Shown: one piece after another, positions 2,285 through 53,903 of the stretch | Numbering within the stretch: the first letter of the stretch is position 1 | How the letters are laid out: every line of letters begins with the position of its first letter | Assembly (NCBI GenBank): GCA_038244815.1 | Contig: JBBRTB010000001.1 | Span: forward strand, 40,099-104,098 | Length of the DNA: 64,000 bases | Direction of reading: 5' to 3' | Source of the DNA: Thermoanaerobaculia bacterium | GTDB taxonomy: Bacteria > Acidobacteriota > Thermoanaerobaculia > Gp7-AA8 | Position numbers and translations under genes: made by a program | The notes under the pieces: generated by a model | The model's database searches: none | The model's input: only the letters and a program-made list of their open reading frames with translations | Told to the model about the DNA's origin: nothing

Positions 2285-4282
<1,998 letters not shown>

Positions 4283-4843: not shown

Positions 4844-4920
4844 GGAGGCACGATCGGCTGCACCGGGGAGTGAAGTCCTTTGAGAATTCTCGGAAAGATC
4901 TCCGAATTACAATCGCAGCG

Positions 4921-5518
4921 ATGCGGGCACGGTTTGGGGACTGCGTGATCGATACGGAAAACCGCGAACTGTCGCGTGCCGGCCGGTCCGTCAGTCTCAC
5001 ACCGAAAGCGTTTGCCCTGCTGGAGGCGCTGGTTCGGGCTTCCCCCCGCGCGATGTCGAAGGCCGACCTGTACGACCGGTTGTGGCAGGGCGTGTTCGTG
5101 GAGAGCGGCAACCTGCACACGCTCGTCGCGGAGATCCGCGCTGCCGTCGGTGATGAAGGGCACGAGATCATTCGCACCGTTCATCGCTTCGGTTATGCAC
5201 TGGCCGCCGAGCTGTTCTCCGAGGAGCTGGCCGGGGCGGTCCTGATCGTGGGATCGCGAGAGCTGCCGTTGCGCGAGGGGGAGAACATCATCGGCCGCGA
5301 GGTCATCAACACTCCCGACGTCTCGCGCCGTCACGCCCGCATCGACGTTCGTGGCAGCGAGATCACCATCGAGGACCTGCACAGCAAGAACGGCACATGC
5401 GTGGGCGGCCGGCGGATCAAATCGGCCTCGCTGAAAGATGGCGACGAGATCATCTTCGGCCTGACGCACGCCTTCATCCGCCTGGTGCGCAGCGATGTCA
5501 CGATGACCGCGCCCCCGC

Positions 5519-5535
<17 letters not shown>
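4921..5535 (+). CDS. winged-helix (OmpR/CadC-type trans_reg_C) DNA-binding domain fused to FHA domain; EmbR-like regulator
   Basis: N-terminal trans_reg_C-like region (LTPKAFALLEALV...LYDRLWQG...LHTLVAEIR) plus FHA (IIGREV...RRHARIDVRG...DLHSKNGTCVGG...DGDEIIFG); ATG 4921 chosen because 4831 start would overlap JAB gene. Confidence 0.65.
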
Positions 5536-8128
<2,593 letters not shown>

Positions 8129-25745: not shown

Positions 25746-25760
25746 CGCTAGCTGTGCGTC

Positions 25761-25827
25761 CTGGGGCCTCGGGCCTCGGGCCTCGGATTACGGCTGAGTT
25801 GCACCCAGCACCCAGCACCGAGCACCC
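25761..25827. repeat. tandem heptamer repeats (GGCCTCG)x3 and (CACCCAG)x3 in convergent intergenic spacer
   Basis: Direct reading; first block is the reverse complement of the GAGGCCC heptamer found inside imuB/dnaE2. Confidence 0.5.
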
Positions 25828-47318: not shown

Positions 47319-47642
47319 TCATCGCCGGTCGGAGGACTTCGCGATTCTCGTGATGCGCAGCGGTTTCGCATCCCTCACGGTCGTCTCTCCACGCGCGAGC
47401 TCTTCAAGGCCGCGAGCCACCGACTCCAGCGCATTGCGATTGCGGAAGAGCCACACCTCGGATGTGGGGATCGTCACTTGCGGTTCGAGAATGATGTTGC
47501 CTCGACCGTCGCGATAAACATCGAACGTCGCGTCACTTAGGTCTTTCAGCGCGGCGCCTGGAGACACGCGCTGGCGATTGTCGGGTCTAACGTCGCGAGC
47601 GACGAGCTCTCGGTCGTTCTGGTGTTTCATGGTCTGACCCAT
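47319..47642 (-). CDS. hypothetical protein, possible SpoVT/AbrB-like swapped-hairpin DNA-binding domain
   Basis: Weak pattern (RVSPGAALKDL...GNIILEP); no partner gene. Confidence 0.35.
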   Translation of the reverse strand: MGQTMKHQNDRELVARDVRPDNRQRVSPGAALKDLSDATFDVYRDGRGNIILEPQVTIPTSEVWLFRNRNALESVARGLEELARGETTVRDAKPLRITRIAKSSDRR

Positions 47643-47738: not shown

Positions 47739-48560
47739 ATGGCTGCACCGGCTCGACCACTCTCCTCACAGTTCCGACTTCTCGATCTCAGGCCGAGCCA
47801 GGCGAAACCTGTCCTCGTCCCGCCTCTTCAACCGGTAGAACGCGGGCAGCGCGAAGCGCTCAGAAATCTTCGGGCCTCGCTCGATCCGGCCATCGCGCGG
47901 CACCTCACGAGCGCCACCGAGCTGATTCGCGCACTCGACAAAACCCGGCGCGAAGACTTCCTCCCCACCACGGTCGACGCCATCGACACGCTCCTGGGCG
48001 GTGGGCTGCGCCGCGGGAAAGTCGTCGAGCTCGTGGCCCGCCGCGCCACGGGCCGCTTCTCGATTGTCCTCTCGGCGCTGGCCGCGGCCACCTCGATCGG
48101 TGAAGCGGCGGCGCTCATCGACGTCAGCGATCACTTCGACCCGCAGATCGCCGAAGAGGCCGGAGTCGATCTGCGCCGTCTGCTGTGGGTGCGTCCGAAG
48201 ACGATGAAGGACGCGGTGCTGGCGGCGGAGCTGATCACGGCCACCGGCTTCCAGCTCGTGGTCATCGATGCGGGGCTCCATCCCGTACGTGGACGGCGCG
48301 TTCCCGACGCCACCTGGGTCCGTCTCGCTCGCGCGGCCGAATCGCACGGCGCGGCCATGCTCATCTCGGCACCGTACCCGTTCACGGGAACCGCATCCGA
48401 AGCGCTCATCCGCGGTGAGAGAACGCGCGTGCAATGGCTGGGCAGCGGAAAGTCGCCGCGGCTCCTCGGCGCCATCACCACCGATTTCCGGCTGGAGAAA
48501 CATCGTCATCGAAAACCGGGCGCGCCGGCGACCTGCGACCTGAGGCCGGTGACGCCATGA
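47739..48560 (+). CDS. imuA: ImuA (RecA/SulA-like inactive ATPase) of the ImuA-ImuB-DnaE2 mutasome
   Basis: RecA-fold remnant (LDTLLGGGLRRGKVVELV), position directly upstream of imuB with start/stop overlap. Confidence 0.65.
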   Translation: MAAPARPLSSQFRLLDLRPSQAKPVLVPPLQPVERGQREALRNLRASLDPAIARHLTSATELIRALDKTRREDFLPTTVDAIDTLLGGGLRRGKVVELVARRATGRFSIVLSALAAATSIGEAAALIDVSDHFDPQIAEEAGVDLRRLLWVRPKTMKDAVLAAELITATGFQLVVIDAGLHPVRGRRVPDATWVRLARAAESHGAAMLISAPYPFTGTASEALIRGERTRVQWLGSGKSPRLLGAITTDFRLEKHRHRKPGAPATCDLRPVTP

Positions 48561-50125
48561 CGCGGATCGCCTGCTTCTACGTCCCGATGTTCCCGCTGGC
48601 GGCGCGGCTGCGCAGCGAGCCGGAGCTGCTGGAAGAAGCGCTGGCCATCGTCGAGGGGAACGGCAACAACGCGCACGTGGTCGCGGCGACACGGCGCGCG
48701 CGCACGAAAGGCATTCGCCCCGGCCACTCGCTCGCCCAGGCGCGATCGATTCTGCCGAAGCTCATCGCGCGCGGCCGCGACGCCGCATGCGAGCACACCG
48801 CGCAGGAAGCGCTGCTCGAAGTCGCGGAGACGTTCTCGCCGCGCATCGAAGACGCCGGCGACGGCGTGGTGTACCTCGATGTCACAGGGATGGAGCGACA
48901 TTACCAGGCCTCGGGCCTCGGGCCGCAGGCCTCGGTCGAAATCAGGGCGGGGGAAACCGAGGCCCGAGGCCCGAGGCCCGAGGCCTCTCCCGAGCTCCTG
49001 CTCGGCCGCGAGGCCATCCGCCGCTGTGACGCCATCGGATTGCCGGCGCGCGCCGGCATTGCCGCGAGCAAGCTGGCGGCGCGTGTGGCGGCGGAGCTGC
49101 CGAAGTCGCCGCGCGTCGTCGAGCCGGGTCAGGAAGCGGAGTTTCTCGCACCGCTGCCTCTGACGCGACTGGCGCCCGAGGTGAATGCGGCGATGACGCT
49201 GGACCGGTGGGGAATCACGTCGATCGGCGACCTGGCCCGTCTTCCCGAAAGCGAAATTGCCAGCCGTCTCGGCGAGTGCGGCCGCGATCTGCACTCCGCG
49301 GCGCGCGGCATCGATCCGACACCGCTCATTCCGCGCCCCTTGCCGCCGGAGTTCCGCGAAGGGCTCGACCTGGAGTGGCCGCTCGTGGCGCTCGAGCCGT
49401 TTCTCTTCATCGCCAGCGCCGCGCTCGACCGGCTGACCAAACGGATGGAAGTGCAGGGCTTCGCCTGCACGCGGCTCGAGCTGACGATGCAGCTCGAACC
49501 GGATGGGTTTCATTCGCGCGCCATCGAGCTTCCGGCGCCGACGCGCGATGTGAAGACGATGCTGACGCTGCTGCGCCTCGACCTCGAGAAAACACCGCCC
49601 GGCGCGCCGGTCACCGGATTCGTGATCGTCGCCCATCCCGACCGCCCGCGGCGCGCGCAGTTGTCGCTGTTCGGTCCCGCCGCACTCTCGCCGGAGAAAC
49701 TGGCCACGACGATCGCCCGCCTCGTCTCACTCCTCGGCGACGGCCGCATCGGCATGGCCACGACGGTCGACGGTCATCTGCCGGAGCGTTACTCGATCGC
49801 CGACTACGCCCCTCCTGCCCCGCCCGACGCGCGGAAGAAACCGCCGCGCAGCCGGGGACTGCTGGCCGTGCGCGTGTTCCGCCCGCCCATCCCCGTCGAG
49901 GTCATCACGCGTGTCGTCGGCGGCGAAATGCAGATCGAGAGGATCGAAGGAGACGGCGACGTCTCCGGCCCCGTGCGCATCTCCTCCGGCCCCTGGCGCA
50001 TCGAAGACGGCTGGTGGAAAGACGCCCCCGCCGCGCGCGAGTACTGGGACGTGGAGGTAGGAGCGAGCGTGTATCGGGTGTTCCAGACTTCCGAGGGGTG
50101 GAGGGTGGATGCGAGGTACGACTGA
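48558..50125 (+). CDS. imuB: ImuB (Y-family DNA polymerase-like, catalytically inactive) with in-frame repeat insertion
   Basis: UmuC/DinB-like palm (ACFYVPMFPLAA...YLDVTG) lacking acidic triad; C-terminal ImuB-specific region. Confidence 0.85.
48906..48987. repeat. palindromic heptamer-repeat element inside imuB: (GGCCTCG)n left arm plus GAAACC(GAGGCCC)3GAGGCCT right arm
   Basis: Read directly; encodes in-frame ...GLGPQASVEIRAGETEARGPRPEA... Confidence 0.55.
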
Positions 50126-50130
50126 GGAGA

Positions 50131-50575
50131 AATACAAAATGCAAAATGCAGAATTTAAAATTAAACAACCGCCTCGCATTCAGGATCGCGCGTTCGATTT
50201 TGCATGTCGGATCGTTCAGCTTCATCGCACGTTACTTCGGACAGGACCCACGGCACGGCGGCTTGCAAATCAACTCCTCGATGCCGGTACGTCAGTCGGT
50301 GCCAATCTCGAAGAAGCTGAAGCCGGCCAGAGTAAACCCGACTTCATTTCAAAGTGCCGCATTGCGCTCAAAGAAGCGCGTGAAAGCCTTTACTGGCTTC
50401 GCTTATTCGCAGGCACAGAAATCGTCAAGCCGGATCAACTCGCACCGATCATTCAGGAGGCACGCGAGATCGTCGCGATTCTGACGACGATCGTTCGAAA
50501 CGCGACAAAGTCGCGTTAACGATTTTTACTTTCAACATTCTGCATTTTGCATTTTGCATTTTGCATTTTGCATCT
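50131..50575. mobile_element. low-GC insertion carrying a four-helix-bundle (23S rRNA IVS-type) gene, bounded by inverted (TGCAAAA)n heptamer repeats
   Basis: Left AATACAAAATGCAAAATGCAGAAT, right ATTCTGCA(TTTTGCA)4TCT (inverted); local GC far below flanks; sits between imuB stop and dnaE2 start. Confidence 0.55.
50139..50519 (+). CDS. four-helix-bundle protein (TIGR02436 / 23S rRNA-intervening-sequence protein family)
   Basis: Family hallmark ...FISKCRIALKEARESLYWLRLF...; ATG lies inside the left inverted repeat. Confidence 0.8.
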   Translation: MQNAEFKIKQPPRIQDRAFDFACRIVQLHRTLLRTGPTARRLANQLLDAGTSVGANLEEAEAGQSKPDFISKCRIALKEARESLYWLRLFAGTEIVKPDQLAPIIQEAREIVAILTTIVRNATKSR

Positions 50576-50600
50576 ATTCCACAGCTCGCTCACGCTCGCC

Positions 50601-53600
50601 ATGTCCCACGGACGAAAACCAACCAGAAACCTCGACGCGTTAAACATCACGTACTCGCCTCCCGGCGAGACGAAGGAGAAGGTCAAAGCCCGCGCCACGA
50701 GCGTGCCGCTCTCCTCCCAGTACGACCACATCCCGTTCGTCCACGAGAAATTCGGCGGGACGAAGCCGGATGAAGCGCCGCCGGAGCCGGCGCCGCCGAA
50801 ACGGAGCACGACGAGAACGAAAACGCGTCCGTACGCGGAGCTGCATGCCGCCAGCGCGTTCTCGTTTCTCGATGGCGCGTCGCTGCCTGAAGATCTCATG
50901 TACCAGGCAGCGGAACACGACCTGCCGGCCATGGCGCTCGTCGACACGAACGGCGTCTACGGCGCACCGCGCTTCTACGGCGCGGCGAAGAAGACCGGAG
51001 TCCGAGCCCTCGTCGGCAGTGAGCTCGTCCTCGAAACCGAGGCCCGAGGCCCGAGGCCCGAGGCCTGCCTCACCCTCCTCGTCGAGAACCGCACCGGCTA
51101 CAGGAACCTCTGCAAGCTCGTGACGGCGGGGGCCGCCGGACGAGAGAAGGGCAAAGCGCGATTCACCTGGGATCTCGTCGAACAGTACGCGGAAGGGCTG
51201 CACTGCCTCACGCGCGCGGACGATGAAACCGCCGGCCGGATCGCCGGTATCTTTCCGAACCGGACGCACGTCGAGCTGCAGCGTCACTTCCGCCGCGACG
51301 AAGAGCGCCACAACATCCGCCTCATCGATCTGGCGCGCCGCCTGAGACTCCCGCTCGTGGCCACCAACGGCGTGCGTTACGCACGGCCGCAGGACAAGGA
51401 GCTGCACGACGTCCTCACCTGCATCCGCGAGAAGACTCACGTCGACAAGGCCGGGCGTCTGCTCGGCGTCAACCGCGAGCGTTCCATCAAGTCAGCGGCG
51501 GAGATGAGCCGTCTCTTCGCCGATCTGCCCGAAGCGCTCGACGGCGCCTGGTCGCTCGCGAACACGCTCGACTTCACGCTCGCCGACCTCGGCTACCAGT
51601 TTCCCGACTACCCGCTTCCCGCCGGCGAGACGAACAACTCCTTCCTGCGCAAGATCGCCTGGAACTCGGCCAAAGCGCGCTTCCGGCCGCTGACCGCCAA
51701 AGCGCAGATGCAGGTCGAGAAAGAGCTGAACATGATCGAGAAGCTCGATCTGGCCGGCTACTTCCTCATCGTCTGGGACATCGTGCAGTTCTGCGGCCGC
51801 GAGAAAATCCTCGTGCAGGGCCGCGGATCCGCCGCGAACAGCGCCGTCTGTTACGCGCTCGGCATCACCGCGGTCGATCCGGTGAAGATGGAGCTGCTGT
51901 TCGAGCGTTTCCTCTCCGAGGAGCGCGGCGAATGGCCGGACATCGATCTCGATCTGCCTTCGGGCGATCAGCGCGAGAGAGTCATCCAGCACGTCTACCA
52001 GACCTACGGCGTGCACGGTGCGGCCATGACCGCGAACGTGATCACGTACCGCGACCGCTCCGCCGCGCGCGAAGTCGGCAAAGCGCTCGGCTACTCGCTC
52101 GAGCAGGCCGACAAGCTCTCGAAATGCGTCTCCACCTGGAACTTCGGCGAGATCAGGGAGGCCATCGAGAATCTCGCCGGCGAGCTGGAGAAAACGGGAT
52201 TCGATCCCGCCGACCTGCGCGTGCAGCACTTCATGCGCCTCTACCTGCAGATCCAGAATCTGCCGCGCCACCTCGGCCAGCATTCGGGCGGGATGGTGAT
52301 GGCCAAAGGACGCCTCGACGAAGTCGTGCCACTCGAGCCGGCCTCGATGCCCGGCCGCGTGGTCATCCAATGGGATAAGGAGGACTGCGCCGATCTCGGC
52401 CTCATCAAAGTGGATCTCCTGGGACTGGGGATGCTGGCGGCGATCGAAGAAGCGCTGCCGACGATCCGCACCAACGAAGGCATCGATGTCGACCTCGCTC
52501 ACCTGCCGGAAAACGATCCCGCCGTCTACAAGATGCTCAACGAGGCCGACACCGTCGGCATGTTCCAGGTCGAGAGCCGCGCGCAGATGGCGTCGCTGCC
52601 GCGCAACGCGCCGAAGAAGTTCTACGACATCGTGGTGCAGGTCGCCATCATCCGTCCCGGACCGATCGTCGGCGGCATGATCCGGCCGTTCTTCGATCGC
52701 CGCCAGGGCAAGGCGCCGGTCGAATATCCGCATCCCTGCCTCGAGCCGATCCTCAAGCGCACGCTCGGTGTGCCGCTCTTTCAGGAGCAACTGCTGCGCA
52801 TGGCTATGGTGGCGGCGAACTTCACCGGCGGCGAGGCCGAGGAACTGCGCCGGGCCATGGGGTTCAAGCGTTCGATGGAGCGCATGCACGACATCGAGAA
52901 GCGGCTGCGCGAAGGCATGACCAGCAACGGCATCGATCTTCCCGCCCAGGAGCAGATCGTGAAGTCGATCACCGCGTTCGCGCTCTACGGCTTCCCGGAA
53001 TCGCACGCGGCGAGCTTCGCGCTCATCGCCTACGCCAGCGCGTATCTGAAAGCGCACCACTCCGCGGCGTTCTACGTCTCGCTGCTGAACGCGTGGCCGA
53101 TGGGTTTCTACCATCCGGCCACGCTCGTCAAGGACGCGCAGCGGCACAAGACCGGCGTGCTGCCGATCGACGTGAATCACTCCGGCTGGATGTGCCGCTG
53201 GGAAAACAACGGCGTGCGCATGGGGATGCGGTTCATCAAGGGACTGCGCGAAGCGACCGCGAAGAAGATCGAGGCCAATCAGCCGTTCACGTCGACGGAG
53301 GATCTCGCCTGGCGCTGCCGGCTGCGTGACGACCAGCTCACCAAGCTCGCCCACGCCGGCGCGCTCGGCTCACTCGGATTGACGAGACGCAACGCGCTCT
53401 GGCAGGCCGCCAAAGCGGCGAAACCGGCCGGAGAGCTGTTCGAAGGAAACCGAGGCCCCAGGCCCGAGGCCCGAGGCCTGCTTCCGGAGATGTCCGCGAT
53501 CGAGAACACGATGGCCGACTACCACACCATGGAGCTGACGACCGGTCCGCATCTCATCGAGCATTTCCGTTCGCAGCTCGAGAGAGACAACATCCTGTCG

Positions 53601-53903
53601 GCCGCGGATCTGACGCGCATCCCCAGCGGCCGGCGTGTCACGACCGCCGGCGCGGTCATCGTGCGCCAGCGTCCCGGGACGGCGAGGGGATTCGTGTTCC
53701 TCACGCTCGAAGACGAGACCGGTCTCTCGCAGGCCATCGTCAGCCCGGCGCTGTTCAGCGATCAGCGCTCGACGATCCTCGGACACTCCGGCCTGATCGT
53801 CGAAGGCATTCTCCAGAACACGGATGGGCAGTGCTCGGTGAAGGCGGAGAAGTTCTGGCCGCTGCCGGGCGTCGACGAGATCCAGAGTCACGACTTTCAT
53901 TGA
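50601..53903 (+). CDS. dnaE2: error-prone DNA polymerase DnaE2 (Pol III alpha family), two in-frame repeat insertions
   Basis: PHP domain, Pol III alpha catalytic region (GRGSAANSAVCYALGIT), no tau/beta-binding tail; follows imuA-imuB; ATG 50601 (upstream 54 nt are repeat sequence). Confidence 0.9.
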   Translation: MSHGRKPTRNLDALNITYSPPGETKEKVKARATSVPLSSQYDHIPFVHEKFGGTKPDEAPPEPAPPKRSTTRTKTRPYAELHAASAFSFLDGASLPEDLMYQAAEHDLPAMALVDTNGVYGAPRFYGAAKKTGVRALVGSELVLETEARGPRPEACLTLLVENRTGYRNLCKLVTAGAAGREKGKARFTWDLVEQYAEGLHCLTRADDETAGRIAGIFPNRTHVELQRHFRRDEERHNIRLIDLARRLRLPLVATNGVRYARPQDKELHDVLTCIREKTHVDKAGRLLGVNRERSIKSAAEMSRLFADLPEALDGAWSLANTLDFTLADLGYQFPDYPLPAGETNNSFLRKIAWNSAKARFRPLTAKAQMQVEKELNMIEKLDLAGYFLIVWDIVQFCGREKILVQGRGSAANSAVCYALGITAVDPVKMELLFERFLSEERGEWPDIDLDLPSGDQRERVIQHVYQTYGVHGAAMTANVITYRDRSAAREVGKALGYSLEQADKLSKCVSTWNFGEIREAIENLAGELEKTGFDPADLRVQHFMRLYLQIQNLPRHLGQHSGGMVMAKGRLDEVVPLEPASMPGRVVIQWDKEDCADLGLIKVDLLGLGMLAAIEEALPTIRTNEGIDVDLAHLPENDPAVYKMLNEADTVGMFQVESRAQMASLPRNAPKKFYDIVVQVAIIRPGPIVGGMIRPFFDRRQGKAPVEYPHPCLEPILKRTLGVPLFQEQLLRMAMVAANFTGGEAEELRRAMGFKRSMERMHDIEKRLREGMTSNGIDLPAQEQIVKSITAFALYGFPESHAASFALIAYASAYLKAHHSAAFYVSLLNAWPMGFYHPATLVKDAQRHKTGVLPIDVNHSGWMCRWENNGVRMGMRFIKGLREATAKKIEANQPFTSTEDLAWRCRLRDDQLTKLAHAGALGSLGLTRRNALWQAAKAAKPAGELFEGNRGPRPEARGLLPEMSAIENTMADYHTMELTTGPHLIEHFRSQLERDNILSAADLTRIPSGRRVTTAGAVIVRQRPGTARGFVFLTLEDETGLSQAIVSPALFSDQRSTILGHSGLIVEGILQNTDGQCSVKAEKFWPLPGVDEIQSHDFH
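51033..51068. repeat. GAAACC(GAGGCCC)3GAGGCCT element inside dnaE2 (copy 2)
   Basis: 34/34 nt identical to imuB copy; encodes ETEARGPRPEA. Confidence 0.55.
53445..53481. repeat. GAAACCGAGGCCCCAGGCCCGAGGCCCGAGGCCT element inside dnaE2 (copy 3, 1 substitution)
   Basis: Encodes NRGPRPEARG in frame. Confidence 0.55.

Follow-up and report, generated by a model that had tools for sequence, protein, structure and literature searches.

A promoter-less four-helix-bundle gene cassette with inverted heptamer arms, probably of the 23S rRNA intervening-sequence kind, in the imuB-dnaE2 spacer of a Thermoanaerobaculia bacterium

The intervening sequence (IVS) of the Coxiella burnetii 23S rRNA is 428-444 nt long, has a GC content below that of its host and is bounded by inverted repeats that form a 28-bp stem (PMC4990558). 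Its S23p open reading frame (ORF) is preceded by AGAAGA, three tandem copies of GACAGAT and one GACAGAA, with a copy number that varies among strains (PMC4990558). This IVS is excised in vitro by RNase III, which cuts at the start of the first heptamer; the S23p protein is apparently not made, its ORF is decaying, and the element is regarded as horizontally acquired selfish DNA (PMC4990558). An element of similar build is described here from a 64,000-nt stretch of the genome of a Thermoanaerobaculia bacterium (assembly GCA_038244815.1, contig JBBRTB010000001.1), a stretch called the window below. At positions 50130-50573 of the window, in the spacer between the imuB and dnaE2 genes of an error-prone polymerase operon, a gene for a small four-helix-bundle (4HB) protein stands between inverted arrays of heptamers. 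This cassette is probably a promoter-less selfish element of the same ORF-bearing 23S rRNA IVS kind, sited in an operon spacer.

Tandem heptamers are also known from outside rRNA genes, and they are the commonest long simple-sequence repeats (SSRs) in many bacteria (PMC4692102); TAACTGA is one of the related repeats (PMC4679880). Rehm et al. (2015) described about 186 arrays of the type (GGGAATC/GGGANTN)n in Xanthomonas, of which 70 formed convergent inverted pairs; their function was unknown (PMC4692102). Repeat #15 of their supplementary table overlaps the start codon of XCC0516 (PMC4692102), whose product was crystallised as a 4HB protein (2GSC) and is described as a homopentameric toroid (PMC4990558). 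The corresponding protein family, PF05635, resembles Avd (PMC10053308), the accessory protein of diversity-generating retroelements (DGRs), and 23S_rRNA_IVP genes have been noted before inside cas operons (PMC3936711).

The window cassette (444 nt) lies on the plus strand, as do imuB and dnaE2, between the imuB stop codon (TGA, 50123-50125, 4 nt upstream of the cassette) and the dnaE2 start codon (ATG at 50601). The tract GGAG that separates it from imuB (50126-50129), read from the sequence as a Shine-Dalgarno (SD)-like purine tract, ends 9 nt 5' of the 4HB start codon and corresponds to AGAAGA of the Coxiella IVS and to GTAGAAGAA at related junctions. The left (5') arm, AAATACAAAATGCAAAATGCAGAAT (50130-50154), consists of about 3.6 heptamers (AAATACA, AAATGCA, AAATGCA and GAAT) and holds the ATG (50139) of the 4HB gene, which encodes 126 aa (50139-50519). 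The right (3') arm, ATTCTGCA(TTTTGCA)4 (50537-50573), consists of about 5.4 heptamers (CATTCTG, then CATTTTG four times) and is the reverse complement of the left arm. A 27-nt spacer (50574-50600) with no obvious SD sequence follows before dnaE2, the equivalent spacer of relatives being 0-15 nt. The GC content of 50126-50600 is 0.497, the minimum of all 475-bp segments in the 64 kb (mean 0.648, standard deviation 0.032), and the GC at third codon positions (GC3) is 0.50 for the 4HB gene against 0.83 for imuB and 0.86 for dnaE2. The original prediction of an AT-rich, TIGR02436-type 4HB gene with inverted heptamer repeats, lying between the imuB stop and the dnaE2 start, was thus confirmed in its coordinates, its profile assignment and its GC content.

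The heptamer dimer TGCAAAATGCAAAA, allowing up to 2 mismatches, has six matches in the window, all of them in the two arms, where shuffled sequences lead one to expect 0.06. The arms form inverted repeats of 30-42 nt with 79-87% complementarity, their longest uninterrupted Watson-Crick helix is 20 bp, and they pair with each other in the minimum free energy (MFE) RNA structure of 50110-50610 (z -4.5). A promoter-like site was looked for at the cassette and none was found. Rfam returned no match in 49800-50900 at E up to 1, the element lying outside any rRNA gene. DGR template or variable repeats were likewise absent from 50000-50700, and the immediate neighbours are imuB and dnaE2, not a reverse transcriptase. 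A short GC hairpin with a T-run spans the 4HB stop codon (50499-50517, plus strand) and is weakly terminator-like; a conserved intrinsic terminator inside the cassette was nevertheless rejected, as other cassettes, including those of loci L002 and L003, lack this hairpin, and the region contains five such sites where chance predicts 3.2.

Profile comparison assigns the ORF to PF05635 (E 2.9e-18; 66.5 bits, cut-off 33.8) and to TIGR02436 (E 8e-24; 84 bits, cut-off 24). An AlphaFold2 model of the protein has four helices with a pLDDT (predicted local distance difference test) of 90.9, and residues 1-9, encoded by the left arm, form a disordered tail with pLDDT below 50. Leading structural matches of the model are 2RLD (TM-score 0.79/0.92, 40% identity), 2GSC (XCC0516; probability 1.00), Avd (4DWL) and the Avd chains of the DGR ribonucleoprotein 8UB7; the 2RLD and 2GSC entries contain five chains each. 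Within the motif GxxRxxxSxxxNxxE (PMC3936711), the window protein has S52-x3-N56-x2-E59, with D48 at the arginine position, which is R, K, N or S in relatives. The ratio of nonsynonymous to synonymous rates (dN/dS) is 0.06-0.10 between the window gene and relatives with the same arm type (type A), and 0.05-0.12 within arm-type groups, which indicates that the protein is under purifying selection. Within these groups dS exceeds 1 (saturated), and the arms have therefore been conserved well past synonymous or neutral sites. Carriage by phages was rejected, as IMG/VR held no relatives and GenBank phages only two weak matches, and so was membership in a defence system, with no PADLOC match at E up to 0.01 and no PHROG match.

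Inverted arms recur throughout the 4HB family. In a set of 100 distinct 4HB cassettes with complete flanks, obtained after 80 further 4HB loci had been added from metagenomes, an inverted repeat between a cassette's own 5' and 3' flanks reached a score of at least 14 in 62/100 and of at least 18 in 53/100. At the lower score, shuffled flanks gave 0/100 and the flank of another cassette 7/100, and neighbouring non-4HB ORFs on the same contigs had an inverted repeat in 3/213 cases. Uninterrupted helices, G:U pairs included, measured at least 16 bp in 47/100 cassettes and at least 20 bp in 31/100, with none in shuffled flanks; these counts were used in place of RNAduplex on the full 150-165-nt flanks, which gave long spurious duplexes. 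The arms comprise more than 15 kinds of tandem heptamer (TGCA-RAA, TGTT-SAA, TTTC-RAA, TTGA-GAA, GTGA-GAA, GGGT-GAA, TTTA-GAA and others). Brought into a common register, the units give the logo T-K-K-W-G-A-A, equivalent to GAA(T/G)-NNN, with GAA present in 81 of 105 consensus units; C accounts for only 6% of the bases on the sense strand of the 5' arm, and the median array length is 4.7 units. Both arms mirror each other unit by unit even where arrays are heterogeneous (41/42 in L073), and arm type clusters with 4HB protein clade. These comparisons show that the 4HB family is specifically characterised by inverted heptamer arms, which it has conserved, and that arm sequence co-diverges with the protein. 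No paper describing such arms as a general property of 4HB genes was found in the literature.

A scan for ImuB in species-representative genomes yielded 40 loci (62-84% identity) from Thermoanaerobaculia/Acidobacteriota metagenome-assembled genomes, which places the window in the Thermoanaerobaculia. The imuB-dnaE2 junction could be resolved in 25 of these loci, and in nine more the nearest 4 kb to imuB contained no dnaE2. Of the 25 junctions, 17 are occupied by one or two 4HB genes, an ORF-less hairpin of short tandem repeats occupies five (L006, L017, L020, L038 and L040), and three hold other inserts. In L006, the closest relative with a seemingly empty junction, left and right arms of a second type (type B) abut at 5502-5545 as AAATGTTGAATGTT C AACATTCAACATTGAACATTCAACATT with no ORF between them, which is either the footprint of a lost ORF or an ORF-less hairpin element. 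The hairpins of L017, L020 and L038 have a period of about 9 nt. The 340-nt spacer of L040 (5565-5900) consists purely of nested heptamer arrays, namely (GCAGATG)3, (GAGACGA)n, some 30 units of GAAGAGT/GAAGGGT, and finally, in inverse orientation, (TCGTCTC)n and (CATCTGC)n; the long array in the centre lacks an inverse partner. At the L019 junction, an IS200-like Y1 transposase gene (5696-6148; PF01797, E 2e-26) is followed by repeated palindromes, CCCAGGACTGAAGTCCTGGG... (6150-6540), resembling repetitive extragenic palindromic (REP) sequences, so that this spacer also attracts another class of hairpin-associated element. Some relatives have two or three 4HB genes per operon. Thus, in L055 one lies between imuA and imuB (1246-1617) and another between imuB and dnaE2 (3209-3550), and in L025, L028, L029 and L075 an armless 4HB gene is followed in tandem by an armed type-B copy.

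Identity of the host proteins (ImuB plus DnaE2) does not predict identity of the 4HB protein (Spearman 0.06, p 0.45). Since cassette identity fails to track host identity, the junction is a turnover hotspot and not an ancient fixed component; a single ancient insertion that diverged vertically in situ was rejected on the same ground. Four loci illustrate this closely (L032, L033, L035 and L081): their ImuB and DnaE2 are 91-94% identical, yet they carry four arm types and 4HB proteins only 43-55% identical. Homology among these four ends at the outer edges of the arms: the left arm follows a conserved CCACnnnnnGTAGAAGAA, and the dnaE2 start codon comes directly after the right arm. Different cassettes are thus shown to replace one another at this junction among close Thermoanaerobaculia relatives. 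Mean GC3 of the armed cassettes at the junction is 0.58 against 0.80 for host genes, a composition that marks them as foreign. One subclade has an armless 4HB gene 17 nt after imuB, with GC3 0.75 against 0.80 and dN/dS 0.05, which looks domesticated and ameliorated in GC. Exchange of cassettes by site-specific insertion and by allelic replacement through the flanks are both possible.

The cassette is not confined to this junction. In L003, a type-A cassette 73% identical to that of the window has an unrelated setting, its neighbours being a hypothetical gene on one side and an M48 peptidase gene on the other. Among the 80 metagenome loci, 13 are imuB-dnaE2 junctions, with at least seven arm types, and 67 represent other contexts. 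By crude ORF calls, the neighbours of 4HB genes are co-oriented with them in 59/70 cases upstream and 47/69 downstream, and the arms fill the cassette spacers, which have medians of 45-48 nt. On Nostoc and Anabaena plasmids (L129, 19899-20475; L130, 19809-20563) the 4HB gene separates cas2 from cas1 and runs on the other strand from both. Its flanks consist of (AAGTAAA)n and (CTTTTNA)n, and further arrays of this family are found at several intergenic sites within the same 40 kb. These results bear on the further suggestion that the segment is a miniature mobile cassette of 23S-IVS type that had landed inside imuB-dnaE2. Mobility gains support from the L003 copy, the differences between junctions, the lack of host correlation and the low GC3 of armed cassettes, and the suggestion holds for the most part; the arrival of the cassette, however, was not a one-off event but one instance at a recurrent hotspot, with 4HB genes and ORF-less hairpins in the proportions given above. 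A comparison with relatives had been proposed as a means of recognising an ancient integral component: many lineages do carry a 4HB gene at the site, but the genes differ and the armed ones have a GC content unequal to that of the host. We infer movement of the cassette from these comparisons, and the function of the 4HB protein is equally a matter of inference.

Near the 4HB cassette of L071, a 107-aa GIY-YIG nuclease gene (4860-5270; PF01541, E 4e-15) lies between the arms of a different inverted repeat of about 30 nt, ATGTCATTCTGAGCGGAGCGAAGAATCTCA..., that is not made of heptamers; it is another small hairpin-flanked selfish gene.

Heptamer arrays are concentrated in the operon as a whole. 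Seven is the dominant tandem period of the window, with nine runs against one to three for each of the periods 5, 6, 8 and 9, and six of these nine fall in the imuA-imuB-dnaE2 operon (47739-53903; p 5e-5). In the 40 relatives (L005-L044) the density of period-7 arrays is 0.55/kb inside the operon and 0.12/kb outside it, a 4.5-fold difference. GC-rich arrays, (GGCCTCG)4 and (CCGAGGC)4, occur in coding sequence of the window, at 48907-48935 and 48957-48985 in imuB and at 51037-51065 and 53450-53478 in dnaE2, and are read in frame as ...RGPRPEA.... The two arrays within imuB form an inverted pair 21 nt apart, and the window imuB exceeds its L006 counterpart by about 27 aa; relatives have other heptamer pairs at the same position of imuB, for example (GGGAGTG)n..(CACTCCC)n and (GGGAGTC)n..(GACTCCC)n. 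Such internal arrays resemble palindromic repeats inserted in frame, of the sort represented by the Rickettsia palindromic elements (RPEs) and the Xanthomonas GGGANTN repeats. Elsewhere in the window (25760-25827), (GGCCTCG)n stands beside (GCACCCA)n in a spacer between convergent ORFs, the two being mutually non-complementary.

The lack of a promoter-like site, the 4-nt gap after the imuB stop and the pairing of the arms in the MFE structure suggest how such a cassette could live within an operon. It would be transcribed by read-through from imuA-imuB; co-transcription with the operon is suggested by the missing promoter-like site, the short gap and the sense orientation of the gene. The 4HB protein would be translated in coupling with the imuB stop, ahead of synthesis of the 3' arm. 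As soon as transcription had passed through that arm, both arms would pair into a helix of at least 20 bp and loop the cassette out. RNase III cutting of IVSs has been shown experimentally in Coxiella, Leptospira and Salmonella, and a helix of about two turns serves as substrate for this enzyme, so that the 20-bp arm helix is long enough. By analogy with the IVSs, the arm helix may therefore be an RNase III substrate. Looping-out and cutting together would allow the insertion to be tolerated within the operon and the dnaE2 mRNA to be separated from the imuAB mRNA.

Several observations weigh against reading the cassette as a mobile IVS-like element whose arms act in RNA. The window contains only a single 4HB copy, and type-A arms occur nowhere else in it. 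As to the means of movement, no transposase lies within the cassette or beside it, no integrase was seen there, and inspection revealed neither a target-site duplication nor a fixed target motif outside the arms, at the window cassette or at related junctions. Turnover could also proceed without transposition, by homologous recombination (allelic replacement) through the conserved imuB and dnaE2 flanks. About 38% of the 4HB family members have no clear arms, and the orientation statistics depend on the crude ORF calls already mentioned. Arm mismatches compatible with G:U pairing number 68 in the sense RNA and 61 in the antisense (p 0.6), and swaps of whole units account for most of the mismatches. 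This asymmetry, considered as a test for an RNA-specific stem, was accordingly discarded, the absence of bias leaving pairing in RNA and in DNA inseparable by that route; there is no strand-specific RNA-stem signature in the sequences, and pairing could matter in DNA rather than in RNA. Finally, the window 4HB protein is strongly constrained, unlike the decaying S23p of Coxiella, and its biology may differ.

The occurrence of 4HB genes at 17/25 junctions, with no second 4HB gene seen either in the sequence flanking these loci or elsewhere in the window, could also mean that in this clade the protein belongs to the ImuA-ImuB-DnaE2 mutasome as an integral accessory subunit, much as Avd serves the mutagenic DGR reverse transcriptase, and that the arms are regulatory. 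Its fold, related to Avd including the 8UB7 chains, agrees with this, as do the armless subclade copy with near-host GC3 (0.75 against 0.80) and dN/dS of 0.05 and the 4.5-fold denser heptamer arrays inside the imu operon. Such a role is unlikely, however, because the same family appears with its arms in other contexts (67/80 metagenome loci, such as the cas1-cas2 spacers of the Nostoc/Anabaena plasmids), close relatives manage without a 4HB gene (L006, L017, L020, L038 and L040), the window copy has a GC3 of 0.50, and there is no co-phylogeny with ImuB or DnaE2.

The ORF-less versions in these same five relatives fit another proposal, namely a non-autonomous hairpin element, comparable to MITEs (miniature transposable elements with inverted repeats) or REPINs (REP doublets forming hairpins), moved in trans by a hairpin-acting host or foreign enzyme of, for example, the Y1/IS200-like type, with the 4HB gene as passenger or addiction gene and not as mobility factor. 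The Y1 transposase with REP-like hairpins at the L019 junction, the lack of a known catalytic motif in the 4HB protein and the roughly 186 Xanthomonas heptamer arrays, 70 of them as inverted pairs (PMC4692102), point in the same direction. Arm sequence nevertheless tracks 4HB clade over more than 15 types, as expected if the specificity factor is encoded by the cassette; a single enzyme would leave unaccounted for the four arm types of near-identical hosts, and near the window cassette there is neither a Y1 transposase nor a target-site duplication or fixed target motif, all of which makes movement in trans improbable. Hardly to be expected is a third origin, in which the arms are slippage-born SSRs that serve the host operon as an intercistronic hairpin (for mRNA processing, stability or attenuation) and the 4HB gene came to lie in the loop by chance. 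Repeat-array hairpins do hold the junction even without an ORF, GC-rich heptamer hairpins occur in the imuB and dnaE2 coding sequences as well, heptamers are the commonest long SSRs in many bacteria (PMC4692102), and copy number differs between arms and between strains. Yet inverted arrays flank 4HB genes about 40 times as often as they flank neighbouring genes (62% against 1.4%), accompany the 4HB gene to unrelated loci and into other phyla, are kept past synonymous saturation and share the foreign, AT-rich composition of the ORF.

The co-divergence of arms and protein, the arrays of about five units and the RNA-binding precedent of Avd lead to a more speculative idea: a 4HB oligomer may recognise its own GAA(T/G)-NNN array, one unit per subunit, and would in this way help the element to persist or spread. 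In a wider form, which is conceivable but doubtful, S23p/Avd-like 4HB pentamers would be the trans-acting partners of bacterial heptamer arrays generally (Xanthomonas GGGAATC, the cyanobacterial arrays and the Coxiella IVS), each subunit reading one GAA(T/G)-NNN unit. The armed 4HB gene would then be a master copy, resembling REP-associated tyrosine transposases (RAYTs) and their REPINs, that seeds ORF-less hairpins in spacers, in rRNA helices and in frame inside genes. Were this true, the concentration of arrays in the Thermoanaerobaculia error-prone polymerase operon would hint that the mutasome is functionally tied to the formation of arrays or the capture of cassettes. In Thermoanaerobaculia, the imuA-imuB-dnaE2 operon offers in any case a natural hotspot for catching cassette swaps, and three questions become testable: whether the 4HB protein binds its cognate heptamers, whether RNase III excises the cassette from mRNA, and by which route cassettes are swapped.

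As for the remaining genes of the locus, the operon begins with an imuA-like gene of RecA fold (47739-48560, plus strand; PF00154, E 1e-12; NF033429 ImuA, E 5e-12, under the cut-off). The start of imuB (48557-50125, plus strand; Y-family polymerase-like, PF00817, E 5e-19) overlaps the imuA stop by 4 nt. The product of dnaE2 (50601-53903, plus strand) is an error-prone DNA polymerase III alpha-like protein (NF004225, 1208 bits against a cut-off of 939) with PHP, Pol3 alpha, finger, HHH and OB domains; relatives keep its N-terminal sequence, MSHGRKPTRNLDAL. Divergent from imuA and separated from it by 96 nt, a 107-aa ORF (47319-47642, minus strand) has no match in Pfam or NCBIfam.

Compared with known systems, the cassette differs from MITEs and from transposons with terminal inverted repeats in lacking a target-site duplication and a cognate transposase; the 64 kb contain one copy of it. 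With Avd it shares a related four-helix-bundle fold (4DWL, target-normalised TM-score 0.82; Avd chains of 8UB7) and the position of a small basic accessory protein beside a mutagenic polymerase gene. It departs from Avd in having only about 15% identity and no adjacent reverse transcriptase or template/variable repeats, and no Avd gene is known to lie between inverted heptamer arrays. The resemblance to RAYT/REPIN systems lies in a small gene between inverted cognate short repeats, in ORF-less hairpin derivatives and in a repeat type that co-varies with protein lineage. The protein is, however, a 4HB and not an HUH/Y1 nuclease (a Y1 transposase is present at the junction in L019 only), the repeats are tandem heptamer arrays and not REP palindromes, and cognate arrays were seen, in the 64 kb of the window, at the cassette alone.

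The heptamer SSRs of Xanthomonas and cyanobacteria follow the same unit grammar (GAAT-CGG being GAAT-NNN), typically have about four units, often occur as convergent inverted pairs, are intergenic and in some cases intragenic, and vary between close relatives. The Xanthomonas repeats were called G-quadruplex candidates, no link to 4HB proteins was made and most flank no ORF (PMC4692102), and, unlike them, the window arms are AT-rich and restricted to the cassette. From the 23S rRNA IVSs the cassette differs in lying between protein-coding genes of a damage-response operon and not in helix 9, 25 or 45 of the 23S rRNA. Its heptamer sequence is not that of the Coxiella IVS, and RNase III processing, known for Coxiella, is proposed here by analogy. 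It resembles the Coxiella IVS in size (444 nt against 428-444 nt), in its lower GC content and its PF05635-type 4HB ORF, in the purine SD-like tract followed by tandem heptamers at the ORF start and in the terminal inverted repeats, which form a 20-bp stem in the window and a 28-bp stem in Coxiella. What is new here is the location outside rRNA, the heptamer grammar with its co-variation with the protein, the junction hotspot and the link to heptamer repeats that have lacked an explanation. The 4HB gene and its inverted arrays form a unit that is specific, conserved and exchanged horizontally, and that is met far outside rRNA genes, operons and CRISPR-cas loci included. This locus and its roughly 100 relatives show that rRNA IVSs and heptamer SSRs, for decades without explanation and treated as separate curiosities, have a common architecture in which inverted GAA(T/G)-NNN arrays enclose a 4HB gene.

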